DNA of 26,083 bases, taken from a virus. Lineage: Duplodnaviria; Caudoviricetes. The stretch spans positions 1 through 26,083 of IMG/VR virus record IMGVR_UViG_3300021082_000087; one strand, given 5' to 3'. Both the position numbers and the translations under genes were made by a program. A model generated the notes under the pieces. It was not told the origin of the DNA and did no database searches. It saw nothing but the letters and a program-made list of their open reading frames with translations. Shown one piece after another: positions 97 through 25,410 of this stretch (its first letter is position 1; each line of letters starts with the position of its first letter).

Positions 97-525
97 CTAA
101 CCCCTGTTTTTTGCCCGTAGATAAGATTTGGTATCGAGCTGGTAGGGTGCAGCCTTCGTACCCCTGTTTGCTGTCAGGCGGGCCTGTGCGGGCGCAGTAG
201 CGGGCATGTTCCAGGGATGGGCAGGGTCGAGCGGCCACCCATCAGGGGTACTGCCACCAGCCAGCACGTCGCCTGCCTTGCGCTCATGGTGCTGCTTGGC
301 CTGGCCATGGCACTGACTGCACAGGGTTTGCAGATTGGCAGGATCAAGCGCCAGGTCAGGGCGCACCGAGCGTGGGGTGACGTGGTCGACGGTCATGCCC
401 TTTGGCCCCTTGGCATGGCACATGACGCAGTGTGGATGGCGCTTCAGGTGCCTTGCCCTCGCAATGGCCCATGCCCTGCTGATGAGGAAAGCGCGACCCG
501 CACCGACTGGTAGCCTCATGGTCAT
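97..525 (-). CDS. HNH endonuclease, HK97 gp74-like terminase cofactor
   Basis: CVMC...TVDHVTP...NLQTLCSQCH motif; located next to the cos/terS junction; ATGA overlap with the upstream gene. Confidence 0.9.
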   Translation of the reverse strand: MTMRLPVGAGRAFLISRAWAIARARHLKRHPHCVMCHAKGPKGMTVDHVTPRSVRPDLALDPANLQTLCSQCHGQAKQHHERKAGDVLAGGSTPDGWPLDPAHPWNMPATAPAQARLTANRGTKAAPYQLDTKSYLRAKNRG

Positions 526-1079
526 GCCTCGCCCTTCCGCAAAAGCTTCAGCCGGCTATCCATGGCCAGGCGTGCCAGGCGTTCTTTGCTGGTTTCGGCC
601 CGGCGTGCGCGCGGCCCGGAACCCCCGTTCAGTGCAGGGTCGCGCGCGGCATCAGTAAGATTCTCTGATTCTGAATCATGATTAATGTGACTGTGACTGT
701 GATTGCTATGCTCGACTATTGCTTGGTCTATGCTTGCTCTATGACCCCAGCGTGTAGCTGCACCGTTTTTGCCGCGCTTGATGGCTGCGTCTTTTCTGTC
801 AAATGCCTCAGATAGTTCGCGCTCGATCCTCTCGTGATACCAGCGCCCGTTTTCGATCTTGAAGAAGGCCGAAAGAGTCGGTTTTAGGCGTGCCCACACT
901 ACCCCCTGCGCGCGCACGATTTTAGAGAGGCGCGCGTCGTCATCCGGCAGAGCTTTTCCCGTCACCCAATAGTGCGCGATCAGCAGCAGATAGGCGCCGT
1001 GCTGGCCCGTCGTCAGATGGCCGGTGTCGCGCAGATAGTCGCCCCAATACATCGGCATCCAGGCGGTCGGCTTGGCCAT
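522..1079 (-). CDS. YdaU/DUF1376-family phage replication initiator (O-like)
   Basis: WMPMYWGDYLRDTGHLT..HGAYLLLI..YW..G..LP.D...L N-terminus and W.HERIE.E motif; lies downstream of cro. Confidence 0.88.
   Translation of the reverse strand: MAKPTAWMPMYWGDYLRDTGHLTTGQHGAYLLLIAHYWVTGKALPDDDARLSKIVRAQGVVWARLKPTLSAFFKIENGRWYHERIERELSEAFDRKDAAIKRGKNGAATRWGHRASIDQAIVEHSNHSHSHINHDSESENLTDAARDPALNGGSGPRARRAETSKERLARLAMDSRLKLLRKGEA
660..745. repeat. Candidate replication origin: short repeats in an AT-richer tract inside the initiator gene
   Basis: TGTGAC-TGTGAC-TGTGAT and repeated CTATGCT/CTATTGCT words; AT-rich stretch at 655-690. Lambdoid origins lie inside the O-like gene. Confidence 0.45.
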
Positions 1080-1091
1080 GAGGTCGCCCCT

Positions 1092-1328
1092 CTAGGCTTT
1101 GCGCCGCGTGCCCTTGCTTGGCGGATCGCCAAAGACGTCCGGCCGCAGCTCGTAGCGCGTGACCTTGCCGCCGGTGACCCGTTCGATGGCAAGGCACATA
1201 TCGGCGGGAACCTTCTTGTCGCGGTGCAGCCATTTGCCGACGTGGCCTTGCTGCTTGCCGAGGAGCGCGGCGAGCCTGCCCTGGGTGCCGATTTCGCAAA
1301 TTGCTTTTTGAAGTGCCTCGATGCTCAT
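1092..1328 (-). CDS. cro: Cro-like (YdaS-family) HTH regulator
   Basis: GTQGRLAALLG..Q..V.KW...VPA..C.AIE..TGGKVTRYELRPDVF signature; divergent from the repressor. Confidence 0.9.
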   Translation of the reverse strand: MSIEALQKAICEIGTQGRLAALLGKQQGHVGKWLHRDKKVPADMCLAIERVTGGKVTRYELRPDVFGDPPSKGTRRKA

Positions 1329-1400: not shown

Positions 1401-1796
1401 ATGGCGACTTTGGGCGACCGGGTTAAGCAGAAAAGGATCAGCCTGGGTTGGTCACAGGCCGAGCTGGCGGCCCGCGTGTCAAAAATCCTGCGCCGCAAGG
1501 TTAGCCAGGTCGCCATCCACCACATCGAAAGCCGCGGCAATGTCAGCCCGCGTTTCGTCGTTGAATTGGCGCACGTCCTGGGCGTCAGCCTGTCCTGGCT
1601 ACAGCACGGCCGCGAGGATCAGCCGCCGGCGGCCGGAAAAGACGCGCCGGCCGGGTTCATAGGCCATTCAAGCGAGCCGTCACAGGCGTTGCTCGACATG
1701 CTTATGGAACAAATCTATCAGATGCCCGAAGGTTCAGCCGAGGAGAAAGCCGTGCTGACCATTATGCGACACTTGAAGAAGCAGCCGAAGCCCTGA
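1401..1796 (+). CDS. CI-like XRE-family HTH repressor (131 aa, no S24 peptidase domain)
   Basis: LGDRVKQKRISLGWSQAELAA...SQVAIHHIE.RG...ELAHVLGVSLSWL; divergent from cro and flanked by operators. Start moved from ORF-track 972 to ATG 1401. Confidence 0.88.
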   Translation: MATLGDRVKQKRISLGWSQAELAARVSKILRRKVSQVAIHHIESRGNVSPRFVVELAHVLGVSLSWLQHGREDQPPAAGKDAPAGFIGHSSEPSQALLDMLMEQIYQMPEGSAEEKAVLTIMRHLKKQPKP

Positions 1797-1880: not shown

Positions 1881-1946
1881 AGTTCCAGGCTGGTCACGCC
1901 GCCGCGGGAATTGTCCCAGAGCGAAGCGCAGCCCTGGAGACCTGTC

Positions 1947-2918
1947 ATGACGTTTACACCGCACTTCAAGCTCGACCTGACGACCGCCTCATCGCAGGCG
2001 TTCAACAACCTCCTCGAGGAGTTCGAGGCCTGGCGGGCCGAGCAGCCGCCGCGGCCGCTGAACCTCACCAACGGCTGGACGACGATCGATCAGGAGGCCG
2101 CCGAAGGCCTGCTGCTGCGCAGTCCGATCGGCGGCAACCGCAAGCCGGCCCTGCCGACCATCAAGTACTACGCCCGCCAGATGCTCGCTGGCGAGTGGAA
2201 GAAGACCGGACAGCCGGTCCTGGTCAATGCAAGCGGCAAGGTGGAAGACGCCAGCCATCGCCTGTGGGCGTCATACCTCTCGGGCGCGTCGTTCCCGACC
2301 TACGTCATCACCGACGTTCCCGACGATCCGACGCTGTTCGCCTACATCGACAACGGCAGGGCGCGGTCGGCCGCGGATGCCCTGTCGACCGCCGGTCTGA
2401 ACGGCGTGGCCAAGCAGATGTCGGCCGTCGTCTCGATGGCGCTGCAGTACGAGCACAACTGCTTCACCGCGACGACCAAGAAGCCGATGGACAAGCTCCC
2501 GCCCATCAAGTTCGTGGAGTACGTCCAGACGCATCCCAACCTCAAGCTCGGCACCCGCCTGATGAACGGCGAGTACCAGGCGGCAGCCACGGTCATCGGG
2601 CACAAGGATGTGGCTGGCTTCGCGGCCTACCAGATCATCGAGCTGCACGGTGAGGATGTCCTCGACTCGTTCGCCAACGAGCTCGGCACGATCGTTGACG
2701 ATCCGGCCGAGGGCGATCCGCTCGAGGCGCTGCGCAAGGTGATGGCGGACGATGAGCGCTCGCTCACGCCGATGAAGAAGCACCAGGTGCTGGGCCACGT
2801 CATCAAGGCCTTCAACGCCTGGCTGCGTCACGAGTCGGTCAAGCGCATCCAGCTCCGCGTCAACGAGGTCTTTCCGCACTTCGTGAGGCCGGCGCCGCTG
2901 CAGCAGGCGGCGGAGTAG
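1947..2918 (+). CDS. ParB/Srx-fold (DGQHR-like) phage protein
   Basis: NRK...YARQM.AGEW...G.P......G.VEDASHRLWA...IDNGRARS pattern; GGAGA SD before ATG 1947. Confidence 0.65.
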   Translation: MTFTPHFKLDLTTASSQAFNNLLEEFEAWRAEQPPRPLNLTNGWTTIDQEAAEGLLLRSPIGGNRKPALPTIKYYARQMLAGEWKKTGQPVLVNASGKVEDASHRLWASYLSGASFPTYVITDVPDDPTLFAYIDNGRARSAADALSTAGLNGVAKQMSAVVSMALQYEHNCFTATTKKPMDKLPPIKFVEYVQTHPNLKLGTRLMNGEYQAAATVIGHKDVAGFAAYQIIELHGEDVLDSFANELGTIVDDPAEGDPLEALRKVMADDERSLTPMKKHQVLGHVIKAFNAWLRHESVKRIQLRVNEVFPHFVRPAPLQQAAE

Positions 2919-2939
2919 ATCCGTCGAGGGGACGAACCT

Positions 2940-2977
2940 GTGGGGGCGCTCGGCTTTGGGGCGCCCCCATCTTTCTC
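2940..2977 (+). terminator. Probable intrinsic terminator after the ParB-like gene
   Basis: Stem of about 11 bp (TGGGGGCGCTC / GGGCGCCCCCA, one G-U) followed by TCTTTCT. Confidence 0.65.
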
Positions 2978-2991
2978 GGAGGGATGTGACG

Positions 2992-3864
2992 ATGACGAAC
3001 GAAATGCCGGTGCCGACACACAGCACCAACCAGGCCGATCCGCTGGCCGAGCGCTGGCGCGCCGCCTATGACAGGGCCGCCAACGCCCAGAAGCGATCCG
3101 AGGGCGCCCGTGAGGAATGGATAGATGCGACGCTCGAACTCGGCGAGGTCGTTCTGCAGGCCCGCAGGCAGTACCCGGACAATAATGCATTCGGCGGCTG
3201 GCTCGTGCGAAACGGCCTGCGGATCTTGTCTGCAAATGAGGTCATGGCCCTGATGGGCTTCGCCCGCGACCCTGAGGCGGGGCGCAAGCTTCTCCAGGCA
3301 AGCAGGGGGTGGGCTTGGCGCACCGTCTGGGAAAACAAGCAGACCCGCGAGCGGCGGCCTCTTACCGAAACGGGGAAGAGGCCACCAGCGCCCCATTCAC
3401 GTAGATCCGGCTCCGCCAGGGCCAAGCGAGCCCAGCGCATCCCCGACGTCATGCAGGACCAGCCGCCCCGCCCGCAGCCGGCGGCGGTGAGGATCAAGGG
3501 CCTGACCCGCGAGGAGGTCGACCCCGACTTCAAGGGAAACGCGATCGAGTTCTCCGCCAAGTACGGCCCCGTCAACATCCACACCAAGGACGAGCTCGAG
3601 CGCAGCAAGCGGCAGGATGCGCTGCAGAAGTGGCTGGGTGCCGCGACAAGCTTGGGGGCTCTCGCCCGACCCGATCCGGCAACCCTGGCGGAATGGGCGG
3701 CCAAGCCCGGCAGGGCCGCCAGGGTGAGCGATTTGCAGGCCGCACTCAGGCAAGCGGCAGATCTGCTGGAGACGGTTTGTCCGAAGCCCAGGGAGCAAAT
3801 TGCCCCGGTAGAGATTTGCTCTCCGCCGAATGTCCAGAGCGTCATCCCGCCATGCCCATCGTAA
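2992..3864 (+). CDS. Hypothetical protein with a DUF3102-like N-terminal region
   Basis: LELGEVVLQARRQYP....FGGWL resembles the DUF3102 pattern; GGAGG SD before ATG 2992. Confidence 0.55.
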   Translation: MTNEMPVPTHSTNQADPLAERWRAAYDRAANAQKRSEGAREEWIDATLELGEVVLQARRQYPDNNAFGGWLVRNGLRILSANEVMALMGFARDPEAGRKLLQASRGWAWRTVWENKQTRERRPLTETGKRPPAPHSRRSGSARAKRAQRIPDVMQDQPPRPQPAAVRIKGLTREEVDPDFKGNAIEFSAKYGPVNIHTKDELERSKRQDALQKWLGAATSLGALARPDPATLAEWAAKPGRAARVSDLQAALRQAADLLETVCPKPREQIAPVEICSPPNVQSVIPPCPS

Positions 3865-4904: not shown

Positions 4905-5762
4905 ATGGACGTGATCCCGCCGACGATTGGCCACAACAGGCCGCCGGATGCGGTCGAGCTGTTGCGCTCGCACCTGGTCGACACGCACACCGCGCTGATG
5001 GAACGCGCCGACGAGCTTTTAGGCCTGGCCGAGCGCTTGCCGCCGGTCGAGCAAATGAACGACGACTGGGCAGACAAGATTGCCGAGGCCGTCAAGAGCT
5101 GTACCAAGTTCATCAAGCACGCCGAGGCCGCGAGGCTCGCCGCCAACGATCCGCACCGCCAGTTGATTGCGGCCTGCGATGCTTTCTTCAAGAGCATGAG
5201 CGAGCCGATTCGGGTTCTGAAAACCCGCATGGAGGCACGCCACCTCACGCCCTGGCAGAAGAAGAAAGCCGCCGACGAGCTGCACCGCCGGATGGCCGCC
5301 GCCGCCGAGGCGCACCGGATAGCCGAGGAAGAACGCGCACGCGCACGCGCCGAGGCCGAGGCGCTGGCCGAGCTGAAGCGCGCCGAGGCCGCGGCCAGGC
5401 AAGCCGACGATGCCGCCGAGCTGGAGCGCGTGGCCGCCGAGCGCGCCGAGCAGGAAAAGCAGGCCGCCGCTGCACGCGAGCGCGCCAGGGTCGCCGCCCA
5501 GGAACGCAACGTCACCGAGCGCGCCGCCCAGGCAAACGCCGCCGACCTGTCGCGCTCGCGCTCCGATCTTGGCGCACTGGCCAGCCTGCGAACGACCTAC
5601 GGATATCACATCGTCAATCCCGACAGGATTCCGCGGGCCTACCTGTCGGTGAACGAACCGGCGATCCGCGCCGCCATCCGCGCCGCCACCAGGGACGGCG
5701 TTTGCCAGCTCGATATTCCAGGCGTCGATATTTTTCCGATAACCAATACCGTGGTGCGATGA
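4905..5762 (+). CDS. Coiled-coil phage protein upstream of recT (IGHN.PP N-terminus)
   Basis: Long Ala/Glu/Arg helix; C-terminal beta region ending IPGV.I, as in Gp157/Gam-like recombination neighbours. Confidence 0.7.
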   Translation: MDVIPPTIGHNRPPDAVELLRSHLVDTHTALMERADELLGLAERLPPVEQMNDDWADKIAEAVKSCTKFIKHAEAARLAANDPHRQLIAACDAFFKSMSEPIRVLKTRMEARHLTPWQKKKAADELHRRMAAAAEAHRIAEEERARARAEAEALAELKRAEAAARQADDAAELERVAAERAEQEKQAAAARERARVAAQERNVTERAAQANAADLSRSRSDLGALASLRTTYGYHIVNPDRIPRAYLSVNEPAIRAAIRAATRDGVCQLDIPGVDIFPITNTVVR

Positions 5763-6433
5763 TGGCTGAAGTAACCCCGCTGCCCGTTCCCAAGCCGCCG
5801 CTGGTCGCCGGCAACAGCGTGTTGGCAATCGTGCCCAAGGATTTCGAGTCGGCCTATCGGCTGGCCAACGTCGTGTTTACCGCCGGCATGGCGCCCAGGA
5901 GCCTCGACAGCGTCGAGAAATGCACGGTCGCAATCATGCACGGCCTCGAGCTGGGCTTGACGCCCATGGCCGCCCTCCAATCCATCGCCATCATCAACGG
6001 CCAGCCGGCGTTGTTTGGCGATGGCCTGATGGCCCTGGTCCGCGGCAGCGGGTTGCTGGAGGACATGACCGAGACTTGCGAGCACGACGCCAACGGCCCG
6101 ACCATCGCCGTCTGCCAGGTCAAGCGGCGCGATCAGCCGACATGGATAGGCCATTCCTTCACGCGCGCCGAGGCCCAGCGCGCCGGCCTCTGGAAAAAGC
6201 AGGGACCATGGACGCAATACCCGCAGCGCATGATGCAAATGAGAGCGCGTAGCTGGGCCTTGCGCGACGCCTTTGCCGACGTGCTGCGCGGCATCAGGTC
6301 GGCCGAGGAAATGCTGGACGTTACCGCGGCCGGGTCCAGCTCGACGGCGCCGCCACCGGAACCGCGCCGGGCGGATTTCACCGACGCGGAGGCCGATCCC
6401 GCGGCCGACAACAAGGTCGAGGCCAAGCCATGA
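5759..6433 (+). CDS. recT: RecT-family single-strand annealing protein
   Basis: GLELGLTPMAALQSIAIINGQP...A.RAGLW.K.GPW.QYP.RM...RA...ALRDAFADVL.G. Confidence 0.88.
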   Translation: MMAEVTPLPVPKPPLVAGNSVLAIVPKDFESAYRLANVVFTAGMAPRSLDSVEKCTVAIMHGLELGLTPMAALQSIAIINGQPALFGDGLMALVRGSGLLEDMTETCEHDANGPTIAVCQVKRRDQPTWIGHSFTRAEAQRAGLWKKQGPWTQYPQRMMQMRARSWALRDAFADVLRGIRSAEEMLDVTAAGSSSTAPPPEPRRADFTDAEADPAADNKVEAKP

Positions 6434-6612
6434 CCGACATTGTGGAGCGGCTACGCGAAATCGACACTGACCAGAAATATCTAATGGAAGATGTGCTGGA
6501 AGCCGCGGCCGAAATCGAGCGGCTGCGCGCTTTGGCACACGCCTTGGAGCTTTCACTGCAAGAGATCGGGCGCGTCCTTGGAGCCTACGTCACCACCACG
6601 AGCGAACCATGA
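6430..6612 (+). CDS. Small phage hypothetical protein
   Basis: MTDIVERLR...AAAEIERLR motif common in phage early regions; ATGA overlaps. Confidence 0.7.
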   Translation: MTDIVERLREIDTDQKYLMEDVLEAAAEIERLRALAHALELSLQEIGRVLGAYVTTTSEP

Positions 6613-7013
6613 GCGACCAGAACGGCCGGAGCTGGCTGCACAGGCGAACGCGCCCGCGGCTGGTACGCGAGGACAGGGTGAGCCTTGAAGGCCTCCCCAC
6701 GGCCGAGGAACTGGCCCAGCAGCCCCACCAGGGCGACGATGCCGACAGGTTTACGCTCTACACGCCGGCCCAGGTCGAGGCCGAATCGAAAGACGTGAAG
6801 ATTTGCCTTACGTTTGGCGAGCCGATCAGGATACGCGACCAGGCGGAAATGGTCATTGCGGCGATGCGGGCGATTATCGAAAAGACGCGGGCGCACGATC
6901 TCGGGTCCATCAGACAAAGAATCGAGTGCCGCGCCGAAGCCGCCTCTTGCGGTCGTGCCCTCAGTCGGTTCAATGGGCGCACGCCGCACGGCGATTCCCG
7001 GCGCAAGCGTTGA
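6609..7013 (+). CDS. Hypothetical protein, last gene of the early arm
   Basis: ATGA-coupled 134-aa ORF ending 35 nt before the dif-like site. Confidence 0.65.
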   Translation: MSDQNGRSWLHRRTRPRLVREDRVSLEGLPTAEELAQQPHQGDDADRFTLYTPAQVEAESKDVKICLTFGEPIRIRDQAEMVIAAMRAIIEKTRAHDLGSIRQRIECRAEAASCGRALSRFNGRTPHGDSRRKR

Positions 7014-7048
7014 TCTGGAATCCATCGCAGCCTTGGTAGGCCCGGCGT

Positions 7049-7077
7049 ATTTGGCGTAACTATATATTATACGGCAA
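7049..7077 (-). other. dif-like XerC/XerD recombination site (candidate attP or resolution site)
   Basis: Minus strand TTGCCGTATAA-TATATAG-TTACGCCAAAT versus E. coli dif GGTGCGCATAA-TGTATA-TTATGTTAAAT; XerD arm matches 8/11; 7-bp centre; AT-rich island at the convergence of both arms. Confidence 0.7.
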
Positions 7078-7213
7078 TCGGACAGGCCGCTTCACGCCGG
7101 CCCGTTGATTCCAAATCAATATCCGGCCCCGTCCCCGCTTTCCCCGCAATCCACCGCGATTATCGTTCGCGCCCGTTCTCACAACATCTGGCGGGCCGCG
7201 CCCTTTCCATAAC

Positions 7214-7357
7214 TCAGTAGATCAGCACCAGCAGCACCGCCTGCAAGAACAGGTGCATTGCCGCCAGCGTCAGCGCCAGGCCCCACGCCGATTGCGGCCG
7301 GATCAGCACCAGCACAATCGCCACCGAGAAGCAGACGAAGATCAGCCAGCGCAGCAC
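7214..7357 (-). CDS. Small two-TM membrane protein (47 aa), holin-like candidate
   Basis: MLRWLIFVCFSVAIVLVLIRPQSAWGLALTLAAMHLFLQAVLLVLIY; GTG start 4 nt after the fibre stop; last gene of the late arm. Confidence 0.55.
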   Translation of the reverse strand: MLRWLIFVCFSVAIVLVLIRPQSAWGLALTLAAMHLFLQAVLLVLIY

Positions 7358-7361
7358 CGCA

Positions 7362-8561
7362 TTACGCCGCCACTTCGCGAATGACGATGCTCGACACGCA
7401 GACGCCGCCGAAAATGCGCCCGCTGGCAACGCCGTTGACCGTCGTGGTGCCAGCCCCGTTGTAGCCCGCGCGAACCTTGAACGTGGTCGAGCTGGTCGTG
7501 CCGCTGGTCATGACGTGGCGGAAATTAACGGTCGTGATGTTGTTGGTTCCGGCACTGCCCTGCGCCACGGCCGCCAGCGCGTTCGCCGTGGCGTCCTGGA
7601 ACAGCGCCGCCATGCACGTCGTCGCCGTGCCGCTTGAACTCAGGCTGATGACGACCTCTACCACCAGCTTGCTGGTCGCGCTCCTGGGCGTGATGGTCAC
7701 TTGCAAATACTGGTCGCCCTGGCCGCTCGTCGGGATGCTGTCAGTCGCCGACACGCTCGTCGTGCCGGTCGCCACCGCGCCGCTTTGAAACGACGCCATC
7801 TGGATTTGTGCCCCGGCCGCACCGACAGCCGTTTTGACAAAGGCCGTCGTGGCAACAGTCGTGTCATTGCTGGTGGGCGCAATCGCCGTGCTCATCGTCG
7901 CCGTCGTACCGGCGAGCGCCCCGGTCATGGTGTCGCCGGCCTTGTTGACCGGCACAAAGCCCAGGCCCGCGATCACCTGGTCGTAGCCCAACGTCTGCGG
8001 CACGCGCTGCCAGCTCACGCCGTTGAACACGACGGTATCACCGACTGCCCAGGTCGATATGCCGTCGAGCGTCGTCGTGCCGGCAACACTCACGATGTAG
8101 AAATCGCCGCGCGCGGGCGTCGGCACACCCATGCCGCCGCTGGCCAGCGCCGGCGTGTTGGTCGCGGCGTTCCACGACCCCTTGATGGTAAGCCCGCTGA
8201 TAACGCCGCCGATCTGCTGCTGTACCCAATGCGTGGTGGCCACACTGGTATCGTCGTCGGAGCCGCTGACCGGGTTGGCCGCCGTCGCGTTGGCGCCCAG
8301 GTTGGCGGCGCCCGTCACCGACAGTTCCGGCACGATCAATGGCCCGGTCATGGTGTCGCCGGCCTTCAGCACATAGGCAAATATCCCCGGATCGAAGAAC
8401 GGCAACTGGCTGTAGCGCGAGACGCCGTCGCCCAGCTTCATACGGCCCGAGCCGCCGCTGGTTTCAAGGGCGAATTCGCCCATGCCGATAATCAGGTCGT
8501 TTGCCGCCCACTCGGCCGGCGAGCCGATCAGTTGCCTCATGCGGTAGAATTGGTCGGCCAT
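7362..8561 (-). CDS. Tail fibre / receptor-binding protein with an Mtd_N (hyaluronidase-N)-like N-terminus
   Basis: EWAAND.I...GE.ALET....MKLGDGVSRYSQLP N-domain, KAGDTMTG repeats, ATT.(W/F)V fibre motifs, Thr/Ser-rich beta C-terminus. Confidence 0.8.
   Translation of the reverse strand: MADQFYRMRQLIGSPAEWAANDLIIGMGEFALETSGGSGRMKLGDGVSRYSQLPFFDPGIFAYVLKAGDTMTGPLIVPELSVTGAANLGANATAANPVSGSDDDTSVATTHWVQQQIGGVISGLTIKGSWNAATNTPALASGGMGVPTPARGDFYIVSVAGTTTLDGISTWAVGDTVVFNGVSWQRVPQTLGYDQVIAGLGFVPVNKAGDTMTGALAGTTATMSTAIAPTSNDTTVATTAFVKTAVGAAGAQIQMASFQSGAVATGTTSVSATDSIPTSGQGDQYLQVTITPRSATSKLVVEVVISLSSSGTATTCMAALFQDATANALAAVAQGSAGTNNITTVNFRHVMTSGTTSSTTFKVRAGYNGAGTTTVNGVASGRIFGGVCVSSIVIREVAA
7920..8366. 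repeat. Identical 24-nt direct repeat (7920-7943 and 8343-8366) encoding KAGDTMTG
   Basis: CCCGGTCATGGTGTCGCCGGCCTT occurs twice, 423 nt apart (in frame). Confidence 0.9.
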
Positions 8562-8573
8562 GGTCGGGCCTCC

Positions 8574-9464
8574 TTATGCGCTGGTCGTCAGGTTGGCCCA
8601 CGTCGTCGAACCACTGGTGTTGACATAGAGCCGGGTGGTCGTCGTGGTCGCTGCGGTGTTGCTGTAGAGCGAACCCTTTGCCGCCGCGAACGTCGGCGCG
8701 CCGGTGCCGTAGTAAATGCCGAGGTCGGCCGTGCTCGATGCCTTGACGAAGGCCTGCGTTGCCGCGCCTGCGCCGACCGCCGTGGCAGAGAGTGCTTTGA
8801 CAGCACCGGAAAACGTCGCCGTCGTGCCGGTCAGCGGGACCGACAGCACGGCGCCGCTAGAGGCAAATGCGGCAAATGTCGGTGTGCCGCCGGCACCCTG
8901 AAAAGTATGGACCGGGCAATGGTGGTAAATGTTATCCGCGCTGACATGCAAACCGCCGACGCCATTGACCGGATCGCCGATCCCGGTGAAGCCAGCGAAA
9001 TACTGCTTCACCACAGGCACATTGTTGAATTGGTATTCCGTCGCGGAAACATCAGCCGAGAACGTCGCCGTCGTGCCGGTCAGTGCGCCACTAAGAGCGA
9101 CGCTAGGACTGATAATCGCCAGCGCACCGACAGAGTTGATTTGTGAGTCCGTGCCGTCAGTCAGCAGGCGCAAATCAAAATCATCCGACGATGGTGATTT
9201 TAGATCAATCAGCGCGCCGGTTGTTCCGCTGATCTCCAGGTCTGCAATTCCTGTCGATGCAATTTCGACCAGACCCGAGAACGTCGCCGTCGTGCCGGTC
9301 AGCGCACCGGTCAGCGTTCCGCCGGCGAGCGGCAGAAAGTCGGTGCCAATCGTCGCCGCCACCTGGGCAACGGTGATTCGGTGGCTGACACCGGCCTGGT
9401 TGGCCTCGAGCTGGTCGGTCGGAAAGACGGCGCCGGCCGGCGGCAATTCGGAAATCTTTGGCAT
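8574..9464 (-). CDS. Tail fibre / spike protein
   Basis: MPKISELP N-terminus, LPLAGGTLTGAL fibre motif, G.GAP......GSLY C-terminal module; GGAGG SD. Confidence 0.78.
   Translation of the reverse strand: MPKISELPPAGAVFPTDQLEANQAGVSHRITVAQVAATIGTDFLPLAGGTLTGALTGTTATFSGLVEIASTGIADLEISGTTGALIDLKSPSSDDFDLRLLTDGTDSQINSVGALAIISPSVALSGALTGTTATFSADVSATEYQFNNVPVVKQYFAGFTGIGDPVNGVGGLHVSADNIYHHCPVHTFQGAGGTPTFAAFASSGAVLSVPLTGTTATFSGAVKALSATAVGAGAATQAFVKASSTADLGIYYGTGAPTFAAAKGSLYSNTAATTTTTRLYVNTSGSTTWANLTTSA
8812..9302. repeat. Three identical 23-nt direct repeats (8812-8834, 9061-9083, 9280-9302) encoding LTGTTATF
   Basis: AACGTCGCCGTCGTGCCGGTCAG x3, at spacings of 249 and 219 nt (both multiples of 3). 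Confidence 0.9.
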
Positions 9465-9473
9465 TCTGCCCTC

Positions 9474-10064
9474 CTACTCGATGAACCGAATCTGGTCGGC
9501 CTCGGTCAGCCGCTCGTCGCCGGTCAGAACGTAGGGCGGCACGATGGCGGCCGGATATGCCGGCGAGCCGGCAATTGCCCAATCGGGCGACGGCGCGGCC
9601 GGCGTGCCGCCGATCATCCAGTCGGGCGACGGCTCATCCGGCGTGCCGGCAACAATCCAGTTGTTGGTCGGCGTCGTCGGCCCCCCGGTCGGCTGCACCG
9701 GGTTAAGCTCGGCCGGCACCTTGACGCGCACCCAGCCGTAAACCGGGTTGTCCATCTCGAGGTCGCCAATGAAGCGCAGGCTGTGCGGCGAGGAAATCTC
9801 GCCCAGCTTGCCGGCGTACATGCTTTCGATCTTCTTCATGGTGAAAAAGTCATAGGCGTTGACGTTGACCCACTCCTGCCAGTCGCCCAGCTCGGGAATG
9901 GTCATCACGAATTCCAGCTGGAGCTGCGTCGGCATGGTGCGATAGAGCCGGCGCTGGCGGGCCGCGCCCGATTCCATCGGCGTGCGGAGCAGGCCCATGT
10001 CGACGCTGATGCGATACGGCATGATCTGCGCGCAGCGGAATTCGTCGGGATAGATGACCGTCAT
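9474..10064 (-). CDS. Distal tail (gpM-like) protein with a Pro/Gly-rich C-terminal extension
   Basis: LLRTPMESGAARQRR.Y...P motif typical of gpM-like tail-tip proteins. Confidence 0.7.
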   Translation of the reverse strand: MTVIYPDEFRCAQIMPYRISVDMGLLRTPMESGAARQRRLYRTMPTQLQLEFVMTIPELGDWQEWVNVNAYDFFTMKKIESMYAGKLGEISSPHSLRFIGDLEMDNPVYGWVRVKVPAELNPVQPTGGPTTPTNNWIVAGTPDEPSPDWMIGGTPAAPSPDWAIAGSPAYPAAIVPPYVLTGDERLTEADQIRFIE

Positions 10065-12316
10065 ATCGGCACCGGATTGACCAGAAAAGCCAGGGTCGAA
10101 TCGTAAACCGCAGGGTCATAGATCACGCCGGACACCGACACGATGGCGCCGCCCTTGTGCGCCAATACGGTCAGCGTGAAATCCTTGACCACGCGCTCTC
10201 CGTCGCCCCAGGTGAAATGCGTGCGCTCCTGGGTGCCCAGCGTGCGCCAGTCCTGGCCGAACGCCCACGGGTTCGCGCTGAGTATCACCCAGTCCGCGGT
10301 GCTGCCTTGCGTGACCTGGACGAGGTCGGAGGCACCGCCGAATTCGTCGCGGAACATCATGTAATGCGGACCGGGCACCTCGTCCCACGGCAGGCCGCGG
10401 TCGAGCTGTACCGTGATGCCGTCGTTATGGACGCTGGCGACCTGGCCGCTCACGCCCCAGCGCGGCAGGGTATGGGCTACGGCAATGCGCTCGCCGGGAT
10501 ACGGGATGAGGCCTTCCATCTCGGTGTCGAAGTTGACCAGCCGGCGCAGCCGTTGCCGGCGTTGCCATTGCAGCCGCGCGAACTGCGAGGCCTGCACATA
10601 GTCCGAACAGCCGAACAGGTGCAGCGACTCGGGGTTCTGACTGCCGACCGGCCAGCGCACATAGGCCGGCGACCAGGTATCAGGGTCGACAAACGCGATC
10701 TCGATGCCATCGGGCGCGCCGGTCTGCTCAAAGTGATAGTCGAGCCTGAACGTGCTTTTGACGATGTTCTGTTCGCTGAACATCATCGAGCGCACCGGGC
10801 GCGTGCCGTCCTGGACAATCGACATGAGGCCGCCGACCGGCATCGGCGCCGCCGCGACGCCCTGCACCGATTGCGAAAGCGCCTCCCACACCGACGATTT
10901 CTGCGTGTAAACGCCGTTAAAGCTGTACTGGCCCGCCCAATAGGCCCGCAGCGCACCCAGGTTGCCCGTGTCGACCTCGGACAGCGGCCGGCGCGCGCCG
11001 TAAACCTGGTTGCAATAGATGTCGATGAAAGCGTCGTCGGGCGAGGTCGTCGCCGCGAGCGGCCCGCTCCCCGCCGTGGGCAGTTTGCGCGTGCAGCGGA
11101 CACGCACCAGGCGCTCGACGCCGGCCGACACCTCCTCGGCCTTGAGCCGCACCATCAACAGCGTCGTGTTGCCATAGGCCGCCGCCGTCGGCGTTTCGTA
11201 AATCTCCAGCATGAGCGAGCGCCAGTACCACTCGTTCATTTCCTCGCCGTTTGGATATTGCGTGGTGAGCCGCCGCATCTTGACCAGCCAGGCGCCCGTA
11301 TAGCCGCAATCAATCGCCAGGGTCAGGCGCAGCGGATCGCGGTTGCCGCCGAACCATGTCTGGCTATGAACCTGCTCGGTGCCGGGAATCGGGTCGCCGT
11401 TGATGTCGGCCTGGCGAACGATGACCTGCCATTCCACGCCGGTCGAGGTCACGTCGCCCCACTCTGTCATCTGATAGAAGCCGCGTGGGAATTCGACGCT
11501 GTAGTAGATGTAGCGGCCATGCGCCTGGCCGACGCGTCCGACGCGATAGAAGCCCGATTCGTCGTCAATGTTGGTGAACCGCTGCTCGGCCACTTCGAGG
11601 CTGACCCACATATTCTCAAAGAATATCGGCGACCAGCCATTGGCCAGCGACACCGCGGCCAGGTTGCCAAAGATGCCGCCATGCGCCGCCGGCGGGACGA
11701 CAATGTATTGCGCCGCGCCGCCCTCGATGGAGAGCATTTCGGTCTCGCCGATCAGCACCTCATGCACGTCGAATTCGCCTTGCCCGAGGCACATGAGAAG
11801 ATCGACCCACATGCCGCGCACGCCGTCGAACATATGATAAGGCTGGGCGCAGAGGTCCGGTGTCATCAGCACGCGGCCGTAAACCACCGGCACGGGTTCG
11901 CCCAGGCGCGCGAGGTTCTGCCGGCTCCTGACATTGTAGACCGGCGACGGGTTGCCGAGGCCTCCCGGCGTCGCCGCGGCTGGCGCCTGCGGATCAGGAA
12001 ACAGCAGCGACAGGCCAATCGACACCGCGGCCGAAACGACGGCGGTAACAATGGCCGTAATGACGATCACGCCGATCTCGATGCCGGCCGGCGGCACCGC
12101 CAGGAGGGCAACGTCACCCGCCATCAGCGGCCGGTCGAGGTATTCGTCGTCGCCAGCCAACAGCCGCTCGCCGTTGTGGTAGTGCAACACCGGGCCGCCG
12201 GCGCCGTGAGGGTAATGCTCCAAAAGCCATTCAATCGGCCGCGAACCGTCCGGCACCTGGAAATATTCCAGATCGTGCCGCGACAGCAGGTTGCGGGTAA
12301 ATACTAGCGTTGCCAT
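10061..12316 (-). CDS. Host-specificity / central tail hub protein (gpJ/TipJ-like, with a gpI-like N-terminus)
   Basis: N.ARLGEPVPVVYG...PD motif, LCLGQGE.D, C-terminal F.TE.EG....PG..I.V. Start moved to ATG 12316. Confidence 0.85.
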   Translation of the reverse strand: MATLVFTRNLLSRHDLEYFQVPDGSRPIEWLLEHYPHGAGGPVLHYHNGERLLAGDDEYLDRPLMAGDVALLAVPPAGIEIGVIVITAIVTAVVSAAVSIGLSLLFPDPQAPAAATPGGLGNPSPVYNVRSRQNLARLGEPVPVVYGRVLMTPDLCAQPYHMFDGVRGMWVDLLMCLGQGEFDVHEVLIGETEMLSIEGGAAQYIVVPPAAHGGIFGNLAAVSLANGWSPIFFENMWVSLEVAEQRFTNIDDESGFYRVGRVGQAHGRYIYYSVEFPRGFYQMTEWGDVTSTGVEWQVIVRQADINGDPIPGTEQVHSQTWFGGNRDPLRLTLAIDCGYTGAWLVKMRRLTTQYPNGEEMNEWYWRSLMLEIYETPTAAAYGNTTLLMVRLKAEEVSAGVERLVRVRCTRKLPTAGSGPLAATTSPDDAFIDIYCNQVYGARRPLSEVDTGNLGALRAYWAGQYSFNGVYTQKSSVWEALSQSVQGVAAAPMPVGGLMSIVQDGTRPVRSMMFSEQNIVKSTFRLDYHFEQTGAPDGIEIAFVDPDTWSPAYVRWPVGSQNPESLHLFGCSDYVQASQFARLQWQRRQRLRRLVNFDTEMEGLIPYPGERIAVAHTLPRWGVSGQVASVHNDGITVQLDRGLPWDEVPGPHYMMFRDEFGGASDLVQVTQGSTADWVILSANPWAFGQDWRTLGTQERTHFTWGDGERVVKDFTLTVLAHKGGAIVSVSGVIYDPAVYDSTLAFLVNPVPI

Positions 12317-23170: not shown

Positions 23171-23878
23171 TTATGGAAAATAAACGGCCGCGATATGCCG
23201 GCTCAACGGCAGCGGAATCTTGGCGATCATCGCGCTGGCGGCTTTTCGGGCTTTGCTCTTGCCACCCATCGTTGCCAGGCTGTCCTTGCTGCGCGGCCCG
23301 TCGTTGAACCACTGCGTGCCGTTTGGTGCCTTGCGCCCCTGATGCACTGCTGTGTCGTTGAAAGCTCGGGCTACGTATCCCGCCTTATCGGAGCCGGACC
23401 AATTCAGCCCCGCCACCTTGGCTCGAGGTTTCGTCGTCGGCATCAGCGCCGGCACGTCGCCCCAGAGATAGAACGACCCGAAATTCCACCGTGCGCGGCC
23501 GACCCAAGGCTGCGCGCCGCGCACGTTCTCGACCACCAGCGGGATGCGCCGGCCGGCCGCCTCGCTGGCCTCGCGTTGAATACGAAAGCACGCATCAAAC
23601 AGCGTGTTATCCGGCGGCGGCAGCGCCTTTGCGCGCTTCCATGGCATCGCCCGGTAGCTGTAGGCCTGGCAGGGCGGCGAGGCGACGATCAGCGCGGCGT
23701 TGCGGAACTGCGAACCATGCAGCGTCAGCACGTCCTGAATGACAAGCTGCGCCGGGTAGCGGTGGTCGCCGTACTCGTGCCGCTCGATGTCGAAGCCGAC
23801 CACGTCATAGCCCTCGGCCAGCAGCCCCTCGGTCCAGCCGCCCAGCCCGCAAAACAGGTCGATGGCGAGAGGCTTCAT
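23171..23878 (-). CDS. Orphan C5-cytosine DNA methyltransferase-like protein (short form)
   Basis: Motif I DLFCGLGG, motif IV ASPPCQ, motif VI ENV; ATGA overlap with the terL stop. Confidence 0.85.
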   Translation of the reverse strand: MKPLAIDLFCGLGGWTEGLLAEGYDVVGFDIERHEYGDHRYPAQLVIQDVLTLHGSQFRNAALIVASPPCQAYSYRAMPWKRAKALPPPDNTLFDACFRIQREASEAAGRRIPLVVENVRGAQPWVGRARWNFGSFYLWGDVPALMPTTKPRAKVAGLNWSGSDKAGYVARAFNDTAVHQGRKAPNGTQWFNDGPRSKDSLATMGGKSKARKAASAMIAKIPLPLSRHIAAVYFP

Positions 23879-25410
23879 CCTATCCATGCCCGCTCGTCGA
23901 ACGTCTGCGCCGCGCCGTCATAGACGCAGAAGGCCGCCATCACGGCCGCCACCAACGGGTCGATCCGCAGCCGGCCCTTTTCCTTGTTCAACATCCGGTT
24001 GCCGGCCGGGTCGAGCTTCACGACGGCATTGGACGCCGCCATGGTCAGCAGCGGATGGCCGCCATGGCGCAGTCGCTTTTGCAGCAGCAGCGCCTCGAAG
24101 GCCTCCAGCTTTGGCGACATGCCGGAATAGGTCTGCGGCACCGCCTCCCAGGTGGCCGAGCCGCCGAAACCCACGTCGACCGCGCTCCTTTGGAAATCCT
24201 TGATCCTCCACCTGTCGAACGCCACGACGCCCGGCTCGATGCCCAGCGCCTCCAGCTCGCGCACCAGGTAGCCGGCGACGTAGTCGTATTCGATCACGCT
24301 GCCGGGCACCGGAATCAGGTAGCCATCCCTTGCCCACTGTTCATAGGGCGCACGGTCGCGTCGTGATCGCTCGCCCAGCGAGTCCAGCGGCGTGAATACG
24401 AACGGCAACAGGTGGACGGCGCCGCCGTCGTCATCCTCTGCTCGAGCAGCCAGCACCGCCGCCGTCAAGTCACCGCGGGCCGACAGGTCGAGGCCTATGG
24501 CCACGCTGTTGGAGCGAAAAACATCGAGGTCAGGCGCGCCGGCATTGTCGCGCCAAAGCGCCGGCGCGATAAAGAGGCTTTCCAAAGCAATTCGTTGATT
24601 CAGGAAAAGGTTTCTAAAGCTCGCCTCCTCGCTCGGCAGACGCTTTGCGCGCTCGGCCATCTGCGCGAGGTCGCCGGCGTCCCTGAAGATTCCAAGCGCC
24701 GGATTCGCCGCCGCCCACGCCGCCGGATCGTCCAGGGCGCAACCATTGGCGGCGCGGTACTCATGCACGACGATGGACGGGTCGCCGGAGCGCACGGCGT
24801 CGTCAATCCATATCGAAAACATCGACTGGTCGCTGCGCGCGCTGGTCGATATGCCGAACAGCAGCGGATGCGAGTAGGCACCTTGCGCCGTCGTGATGGC
24901 CTCGACGAACGGCGAGGTCTCGGCGTCGATCTGGCCAATCTCGTCGAGGATGGCGACCACCGGCGACAGGCCATGCGCGGCGCCGGCCTGGGCGCTTAAG
25001 GCCCTATACTCGGTATTGAGCGCGAGGCCTTTGATGCGCTTGCTCGATTCGACGATGTGCACCTCGCGCACCAGGCGCGGATTGAGCCGGATCATCTTCA
25101 CCGCGAGGTCGAACACCAGCGCCGCCTGCGCGCGCGTGAGGCCGCCGCTCACAATCTGCGAATTGCGCGCCGCCACCGGGCCTATCAGATGCGCCAGCAC
25201 CAGCATGGCGATCAACGTGGTCTTGGCGTTCTTGCGCGCCATCGACAGCAGCGCGCGCCGTGTGCCGTGCGGGTTGTCGTACACGTCGAGGATGAACTTG
25301 ACCTGGAACGGCGCCAGCTCGACCGGGCGGCCGACATGCTCGCCCTCCGGCACGCGGAGGTAGGTCGTGCAGAAGCGGACAACCTTTTCGCCGCGGGTTT
25401 CAGTCGTCAT
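23875..25410 (-). CDS. terL: Terminase large subunit
   Basis: L.PFQ, Walker A ARKNAKT, Walker B ILDE, coupling motif IST, nuclease GLDLS...D and IDPLVA. Confidence 0.96.
   Translation of the reverse strand: MTTETRGEKVVRFCTTYLRVPEGEHVGRPVELAPFQVKFILDVYDNPHGTRRALLSMARKNAKTTLIAMLVLAHLIGPVAARNSQIVSGGLTRAQAALVFDLAVKMIRLNPRLVREVHIVESSKRIKGLALNTEYRALSAQAGAAHGLSPVVAILDEIGQIDAETSPFVEAITTAQGAYSHPLLFGISTSARSDQSMFSIWIDDAVRSGDPSIVVHEYRAANGCALDDPAAWAAANPALGIFRDAGDLAQMAERAKRLPSEEASFRNLFLNQRIALESLFIAPALWRDNAGAPDLDVFRSNSVAIGLDLSARGDLTAAVLAARAEDDDGGAVHLLPFVFTPLDSLGERSRRDRAPYEQWARDGYLIPVPGSVIEYDYVAGYLVRELEALGIEPGVVAFDRWRIKDFQRSAVDVGFGGSATWEAVPQTYSGMSPKLEAFEALLLQKRLRHGGHPLLTMAASNAVVKLDPAGNRMLNKEKGRLRIDPLVAAVMAAFCVYDGAAQTFDERAWIG

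Follow-up and report, generated by a model that had tools for sequence, protein, structure and literature searches.

What is a dif-like sequence doing in a tailed phage that carries a repressor and encodes no recognizable recombinase? The question arises at positions 7049 to 7077 of the 26,083-nt stretch of viral DNA analyzed here (the window), where the initial annotation placed a candidate XerC/XerD site in the position expected of an integrase and its attP.

Gene content and completeness of the phage genome

Pfam and PHROG scans of the 38 ORFs gave a siphovirus-type layout. Minus-strand genes encode HNH, small and large terminase, protease, capsid, portal, and tail proteins, and also include cro and a DUF1376 replication gene; the plus strand carries the HTH repressor, a ParB-like ORF, recT, and small ORFs. 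The large terminase subunit (TerL; 23875 to 25410, minus strand) is ∼49 to 50% identical to HK97-like phage terminases. The DUF1376 protein (522 to 1079, minus strand; PF07120, PHROG "primosomal protein") is a probable replication initiator, and a RecT-like single-strand annealing protein (PF03837, phrog_561) is encoded at 5762 to 6433 on the plus strand. The last late ORF (7214 to 7357, minus strand) encodes a hydrophobic protein of 47 aa, possibly holin-like, which matches no family and is 94% identical in the related contig L213 and 64% in L214. No endolysin was recognized in the window, and that of L214 has no homolog there. The opposite strand carries, between the genes for large terminase and protease, an ORF (23177 to 23887, plus) that matches no family and is 51% identical in the relative G002; its motifs recall those of cytosine DNA methyltransferases.

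Lambdoid temperate phages have divergent cI and cro genes with operators, and the window shares this arrangement: a cI-like HTH repressor of 131 aa (1401 to 1796, plus strand; PF01381, phrog_4), a Cro-like protein (1092 to 1328, minus strand; PF15943, PF14549, phrog_35), and, between them, operator-like repeats (1347 to 1379) made up of 7-bp inverted arms at 1347 and 1361 and a 7-bp direct repeat at 1348 and 1373. The repressor has no self-cleavage domain (no match to peptidase S24), and no excisionase was found in the window. The "full cI/cro switch" described initially thus stands as to the Cro-like ORF, the divergent repressor, and the repeats, but not as to an S24 domain or excisionase.

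Directly after cI lies a ParB/sulfiredoxin-like ORF (1947 to 2918, plus strand), named from the annotation of distant homologs. Its family is tight (147 proteins) and common to integrase-bearing soil phages; a solved-structure match by sequence was not found, and fold matches to Noc/ParB were weak (E 0.14 or worse). Pfam, PHROG, and further family scans recognized no ParA partner, plasmid replicase, or toxin-antitoxin pair. Of features that might mark a phage-plasmid, the window has the ParB-like ORF only, with neither a partition ATPase nor a plasmid-type replicase.

Only 9 nt separate the record from a complete genome, and no gene is missing. Contig L004, 95 to 96% identical near both ends, links the last base of the window to the first with 9 nt between (L004:1713-1721); CheckV completeness is 100%, and the record has no end repeat. 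The contig ends fall between the HNH and small terminase genes, and a contig from sediment run X1 ends at the identical first base; the missing 9 nt are probably a trimmed 3′ cohesive end (cos). No recombinase was found in the window, either by Pfam and PHROG on the 38 ORFs or by six-frame searches with PF00589, PF00239, and PF07508, for which 14, 13, and 4 of 14 control genomes, respectively, were positive. The integrase and excisionase of L214, used as queries, revealed no remnant in the window. These searches bear out the earlier statement that the phage lacks a recombinase, with a small margin left by unannotated ORFs. The genome has what IMEXs of any type have: a dif-like site and no recognized recombinase gene.

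The 29-mer and Acetobacteraceae dif

Read on the minus strand from 7077 to 7049, the 29-mer is TTGCCGTATAA TATATAG TTACGCCAAAT, a 29-bp sequence of 11-7-11 layout; the sequence and 7-bp center reported initially are confirmed, in a single copy. It is the sole occurrence of TAA-N7-TTA in the window and the single instance there of ATAA-N6-8-TTAYG. Two details of the earlier description needed tempering. The 29-mer does lie inside the 200-nt gap separating the convergent ORFs 6609-7013 (plus) and 7214-7357 (minus), but off center, 35 nt from the stop of the former and 136 nt from that of the latter, rather than at the "exact convergence" of the early and late arms. It is A/T rich (20 of 29), but "conspicuous AT island" is a little strong, since 44 of 26,055 29-base segments are equally rich.

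The predicted XerC-binding arm (7067 to 7077, 11 bp, minus strand) is identical at 10 of 11 positions to the XerC-side dif arm of two Acetobacteraceae loci, L225 and L231, and its inner 7 bases are common to the dif rows for Gluconacetobacter diazotrophicus and Gluconobacter oxydans in the published tables, as far as available. The 7-bp central region (7060 to 7066, minus strand) is the hexamer found most often among the Acetobacteraceae dif loci, lengthened by one base next to the XerD arm. The predicted XerD-binding arm (7049 to 7059, 11 bp, minus strand) differs from the Acetobacteraceae arm at two positions; one of these lies within the conserved inner five bases and is conserved across the available published dif rows.

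Taken together, the best dif matches (L225 and L231) agree with the 29-mer at 25 of 28 bases, apart from the extra base in the phage center; by part, agreement with Acetobacteraceae dif reaches 10/11 in the XerC arm, 6/6 in the center, and 9/11 in the XerD arm. In 200 dinucleotide shuffles of the window, the top score against Acetobacteraceae dif was 19/28, and the analytic zero-order expectation for at least 25/28 is ∼1e-9 per dif sequence tried. The match survives choice among hundreds of dif variants. It is close to certain that the 29-mer derives from or mimics a dif; the "dif-like" label is upheld beyond chance and is tied to one family.

Published tables point to the same family. In the available part of the dif table of Carnoy and Roten (PMC2731167), the XerD-arm type TTATGCC occurs in one row, that of G. 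oxydans, which by hand count agrees with the 29-mer at 22 of 28 bases. The table of Kono et al. (PMC3025954), to the same extent, has four rows with such an XerD-arm type, all Acetobacteraceae, and the central hexamer of the G. diazotrophicus dif is identical to that of the phage.

A scan motif was drawn from the 29-mer and the published dif rows and applied to 185,579 species genomes. Of the 41 matches obtained, 26 come from Acetobacteraceae judging by record titles, where we took the named genera to belong to that family; the remaining 15 fall in scattered taxa and have varied centers. Because the motif was picked after the published rows had been seen, this enrichment is no independent test of the host. 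Ten positions of the site are not fixed by the motif, and seven of these agree in L225 and L231. KOPS motifs (GGGNAGGG, taken from PMC5357621) point toward the Acetobacteraceae sites in 90 of 92 cases, counted in 19 of the 26 loci, those whose flanks are long; the matched loci are true chromosomal dif. Relative to these sites (L223 to L263), the phage 29-mer has similar arms and the same central hexamer at best, but one added central base, and no KOPS polarity around it: the whole phage genome has four KOPS, unpolarized. A looser motif matched 105 of 401 Acetobacteraceae genomes, some through chance, and in a less constrained set, 14 dif-like family loci picked out of 30, agreement with the 29-mer was 18 to 23 of 28.

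Searches of wider collections added no counterpart. The exact 29-mer had no match in IMG/VR. We set aside the matches there to a loose XerD-arm motif (at least 120) as chance, most being low-GC contigs with unrelated flanks, as well as 54 matches to a tighter motif, among which one locus had a weak TerL match and several looked by eye like coding or promoter-like sequence. Both arms with up to three mismatches occurred in 3 of 351 Alphaproteobacteria genomes, not above a reversed-pattern control, and a 39-nt BLAST query found nothing in phages or plasmids at an E value of 1 or below.

Around the 29-mer, a 13-nt inverted repeat is placed near-symmetrically (7010 to 7022 and 7107 to 7119, 12 of 13 complementary), with its right arm kept in L213; it is one of nine inverted pairs in 501 nt at a loose setting and is possibly due to chance. 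No promoter or terminator was predicted in 6800 to 7500. The site region has no stable fold, as shuffles fold equally well (z −0.3 to 0.8). CTX-type elements use two inverted sites that fold in ssDNA; the window has a single site and no second, inverted one.

The integration slot in relatives and the search for a host

The closest early-gene relative, G006 (contig L214), is 85% identical over window positions 1884 to 3845. Its order is early genes, xis, int, a repeat-rich gap, endolysin, and a homolog of the window's last late ORF. Because this relative shares the early genes and the last late ORF and keeps xis-int-attP in the slot between them, the 29-mer occupies the position of a sister's integration cassette. 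The gap beside the G006 integrase (L214:7951-8254) holds several direct and inverted repeats resembling arm-type sites. Both G006 and G002 encode an M15 peptidase; that of G006 sits between the last late ORF and attP, and the equivalent position in the window holds only 136 nt plus the 29-mer.

Two observations named beforehand as counting against a Xer site, integrases at this place in relatives and a 29-mer that is not conserved, were in part made. The ParB-like gene is common to six records, of which four carry a tyrosine integrase (G006, G008, G010, and G415) and the other two are fragments. No counterpart of the 29-mer was found in any relative examined (G001, G003, L213, L214 to L219, and L374 to L377), and four records with homologs of ORF 4905-5762 have no dif-like site in the flanks retrieved. 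Since Vibrio harbors integrase and dif types within a single phage group (PMC12715192, in the part available), integrase-bearing relatives weaken the Xer idea and do not refute it.

Relatives by terminase differ among themselves at this slot. G001 (TerL 85% identical, 99% complete) differs in its early region and lacks both an integrase and a dif-like site; in this 26-kb genome, a Cro-like gene and an HTH replication gene come right after the tail fiber gene (L204:10415-12081), and no cI or recombination genes were recognized. G002 (TerL 80%, 24.8 kb, complete, with direct terminal repeats) lacks an integrase and any homolog of the repressor seen in the window. It does carry an intergenic 11-6-11 dif look-alike, CCCTCGCATAA GGGTCA TTATGGAAATC (L205:13887-13914), which fills a 32-nt gap just upstream of the M15 endolysin gene. 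At all 16 inner arm positions, this site agrees with Rhizobiales dif rows, Bradyrhizobium among them, in the published tables, as far as available; the probability of such agreement by chance, estimated post hoc, is ∼1e-6. In G003 (TerL 57%, 62% complete), a dif-like site was not found, and a metagenome scan gave no further lineage of relatives.

Contig L213 matches window 7093 to 7356 at 92%, and the match stops 16 nt short of the 29-mer. At L213:11297-11302, the sequence jumps into the middle of an early gene matching window 2956 to 3864 in opposite orientation. The joint is present in run X3 too, a run of uncertain independence, and may be an inversion, a loss or deletion, or an assembly fault or chimera.

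We found no prophage split at the site, no attL/attR junction, and no host link, and the check proposed at the outset, for related prophages flanked by dif in bacterial genomes, likewise returned none; the genomes searched hold no close relative. The ParB-like protein had no homolog in 185,579 genomes. Among 401 Acetobacteraceae genomes, none had a close TerL, with distant profile matches in 7 (best E 2e-95). In 201 genomes of the family, phage DNA gave only short, weak matches (in 55), and no homolog of ORF 6609-7013 was present. A perfect match of 29 nt in G048 was not accepted as a CRISPR spacer, because the window sequence involved is short, repeated, and coding.

Two sediment runs, X1 and X2, contain the phage, and X1 may be the record's own source; runs X3 and X4 hold small shares of phage and were left out of the habitat reading. 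An X1 contig crosses the site unbroken (6224 to 10525), and the X2 contigs have a gap at 7030 with no overlap. No loose end at the 29-mer occurs among the contig ends listed for X1, in contigs that drop rare forms.

The host is likely an alphaproteobacterium, and its family is most likely Acetobacteraceae, judging from the resemblance of the site. Named protein homologs belong to Mesorhizobium (47%) and Dongiaceae (30%), not Acetobacteraceae. Since these homologs point elsewhere and the G002 site is Bradyrhizobium-like, the 29-mer is the one observation from which the family is drawn.

Proposed Xer-dependent attachment and its alternatives

We give an even chance to the 29-mer being an attachment site for insertion at host dif via host XerC and XerD, a reading for which no inserted copy was found. 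The proposal that the phage lysogenizes through host XerCD has on its side the dif mimic, a layout of 11-7-11 as in the VGJ-phi attP, the complete genome without a recombinase, and the integrase slot; against it, neither a prophage nor a junction nor a host link came to light. VGJ-phi has a single 29-bp attP (11-7-11 in record AY242528) at which XerC does the first exchange; XerD is then halted because the center lacks homology on its side, and the junction is resolved by replication (PMC4246890 and PMC5357621, in the parts available). The present site shares this layout and, relative to Acetobacteraceae dif, this asymmetry, from which we infer the same route. The cos ends would join, and XerC and XerD would pair the phage 29-mer with dif. 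XerC would exchange strands first, because the bases adjoining its arm match dif. The second exchange would be prevented by the added base near the XerD arm, leaving the junction for passing replication to resolve. This would give a prophage, opened at 7049 to 7077 and with its late genes on the leading strand, bounded by a restored dif with a 6-bp center at the distal end and a hybrid with a 7-bp center at the proximal end. FtsK-activated XerD should not excise such a prophage, with its 7-bp hybrid, at each division, and the HTH repressor would keep it silent.

The likeness to VGJ-phi extends to one 29-bp dif-like site in dsDNA form, no integrase, and a center that matches dif on the XerC side and departs from it on the XerD side, the comparison here being with Acetobacteraceae dif and so dependent on the host guess. 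VGJ-phi, in contrast, is a 7.5-kb ssDNA inovirus of Vibrio whose attP has four central differences and adjoins an activator gene (orf136/XafV), whereas the present phage, known from sequence alone, is a 26-kb cos-type tailed phage with one inserted base, a changed inner XerD arm, and no activator homolog. VGJ-type elements are filamentous ssDNA phages with rolling-circle replication; the window has terminase, portal, capsid, and tail genes, and no homolog of a XafV-like activator was detected beside the site. With these two features different, we file it as working like a VGJ-type IMEX, not as a member. TLC-type IMEXs have a largely degenerate XerD arm, a 6-bp center, and XafT; here, the XerD arm agrees at 9 of 11 positions, the center is 7 bp, and DUF3653, which we take to be the family carried by XafT, is absent from the phage.

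VGJ-type elements encode, and need, an activator beside attP, and a bare VGJ-type site is ∼1000 times less efficient than attP-CTX (bioRxiv 10.64898/2026.06.12.731946, in the part available). The last early ORF (6609 to 7013, plus strand), which ends 35 nt from the 29-mer, is comparable to VGJ orf136 in place and size (134 versus 136 aa), though without sequence likeness. It belongs to a conserved family with 22 representatives but to none in Pfam, NCBIfam, or PHROG. The protein models as a helical hairpin; a fold search with either model gave nothing at E 0.001 in PDB and one uncharacterized phage protein in BFVD, and ESM Atlas matches (score 0.77) fell under lead level and were dropped. That this ORF is a Xer activator is speculation.

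Among known Xer-exploiting elements, the statement that these are mostly ssDNA phages or islands is dated, as dsDNA non-tailed phages with dif-like att sites have been published (PMC12715192; PMC10589892; parts of each available). Vibrio double jelly-roll (DJR) phages are dsDNA, with coexisting integrase-type and dif-type variants of similar core genomes (PMC12715192), and Jorvik-like phages of Alphaproteobacteria (Rhodobacter) are dsDNA phages that integrate at dif-like sites away from the terminus (PMC10589892). Like the present phage, the dif-type DJR and Jorvik-like phages have no integrase and an att that mimics dif, and the integrase/dif pairs resemble the window and G006 in their early module; they differ in being non-tailed and in being known as prophages with mapped junctions, whereas ours is known from the phage genome only. 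Phages of acetic acid bacteria such as phiAP1 are tailed and temperate and infect the suspected host family, but are myovirus-type and nearly all have their own tyrosine integrase, with phiAP1 at tRNA-Ser (PMC8566455); "dif" is absent from the text of that article so far as available. A tailed phage using dif does not appear in the available parts of PMC12482185, PMC3603311, or 10.1101/633727, and no tailed case was found in the literature on Xer-exploiting elements, of which the portion available includes few subscription papers. The IMEXs described there comprise inoviruses, satellites, islands, and non-tailed dsDNA phages.

Other explanations would leave the 29-mer without a role in insertion. 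It could be a relic, in that an ancestor acquired or used a host dif that has since decayed (one insertion, three substitutions) and is inactive, in a phage that is lytic or defective. The 29-mer is kept in no relative, L213 lacks it beside otherwise 92% identical DNA, G001 has neither integrase nor site, and the window has an inner XerD-arm change and no activator, excisionase, or recognizable endolysin, all of which decay would account for. We nevertheless think a relic fairly unlikely: the changes sit where working IMEX sites depart from dif (a 7-bp center altered on the XerD side, and the XerD arm), with the XerC side spared; the repressor, Cro, and operator-like repeats are intact; and the phage was found in two sediment runs, one perhaps the source of the record. 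Unlikely, too, is a dimer-resolution site (cer/psi/pdif-like) of a plasmid-like prophage or replicating circle, at which XerCD would make monomers and there would be no integration. Sites of the cer/psi kind are host XerCD sites on extrachromosomal circles whose center length may depart from 6 (PMC5357621, in part); the phage differs from them in having no identified sites for the accessory proteins of cer/psi, PepA with ArgR or ArcA, a copied chromosomal center, and no partition ATPase or replicase. The copied hexamer favors recombination with dif, the four KOPS are unpolarized, and BLAST of 72,556 plasmid records found no similar site, at the low sensitivity that 39 nt allows. The ParB-like gene after cI would suit a plasmid-like state but occurs in integrase-bearing phages as well and is accompanied by no recognized ParA, plasmid replicase, or toxin-antitoxin pair. 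Dimer resolution would also suit RecT, which would produce dimers, the near-symmetric inverted repeat round the 29-mer, the G002 site, which has an altered 6-bp center in a phage with no cI homolog, and the extra dif-like sites of several Acetobacteraceae genomes, some on minor contigs. Finally, cer requires ∼180 bp of accessory DNA (PMC5357621, in part), and 136 nt are free beside the 29-mer.

The slot itself raises another candidate, a core site for a phage-type tyrosine integrase that was lost or is borrowed from a helper, with the likeness to dif reflecting shared tyrosine-recombinase geometry. Lambda-type integrases usually have 7-bp overlaps, which the 7-bp center fits, and in the xis-int-attP that fills the slot in L214, a TAA-N7-TTA lies 56 nt upstream of int. 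We rejected that element as a dif homolog: its score against Acetobacteraceae dif, 16/28, does not exceed that of shuffled DNA, and it overlaps motifs repeated in L214 itself. The L214 attP region gives no local alignment with window 6991 to 7360, the window has no integrase remnant, and 25/28 identity to the dif of one family far exceeds shared geometry; we regard this origin as very unlikely. Hardly credible, finally, is that the resemblance arose by chance or in an antisense promoter or terminator element. The XerC arm does include a −10 hexamer without mismatch, a terminator is usually required between convergent genes, and chance readily produces loose versions of the motif, but neither promoter nor terminator was predicted in the region, its folding is no better than that of shuffles, and the match statistics (25/28 against at most 19/28 in shuffles; ∼1e-9) speak against coincidence.

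If the Xer-dependent attachment site is taken further, the window may represent a tailed IMEX using the XerC-first, replication-resolved route so far known from filamentous phages only, with the conserved 134-aa ORF a new kind of activator, within a compact (25- to 26-kb) clade of cos-type tailed phages of soil and sediment Alphaproteobacteria that dropped xis-int for a dif mimic tuned to each host (Acetobacteraceae here, Bradyrhizobium in G002). This broader proposal is tentative, and we think it improbable in its entirety. The integrase is what temperate tailed phages are recognized by and what their boundaries are drawn from; should a 29-bp mimic be able to take its place, metagenomic tailed phages that lack one are being misclassified as lytic. 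Were it true, the dif type would be a clue to the host, and Caudoviricetes would join the small non-tailed phages among the Xer hijackers. Testing would cost little, since the acetic acid bacteria that own the matching dif are harmless and amenable to genetics.

Some Acetobacteraceae genomes carry at least two dif-like sites with differing centers, some on small contigs (L230 and G013:C15:504-522; also G211, G349, and G402). L230 is a 6-kb contig without chromosomal-looking genes, and the extra sites are possibly plasmid dif sites or elements at dif.
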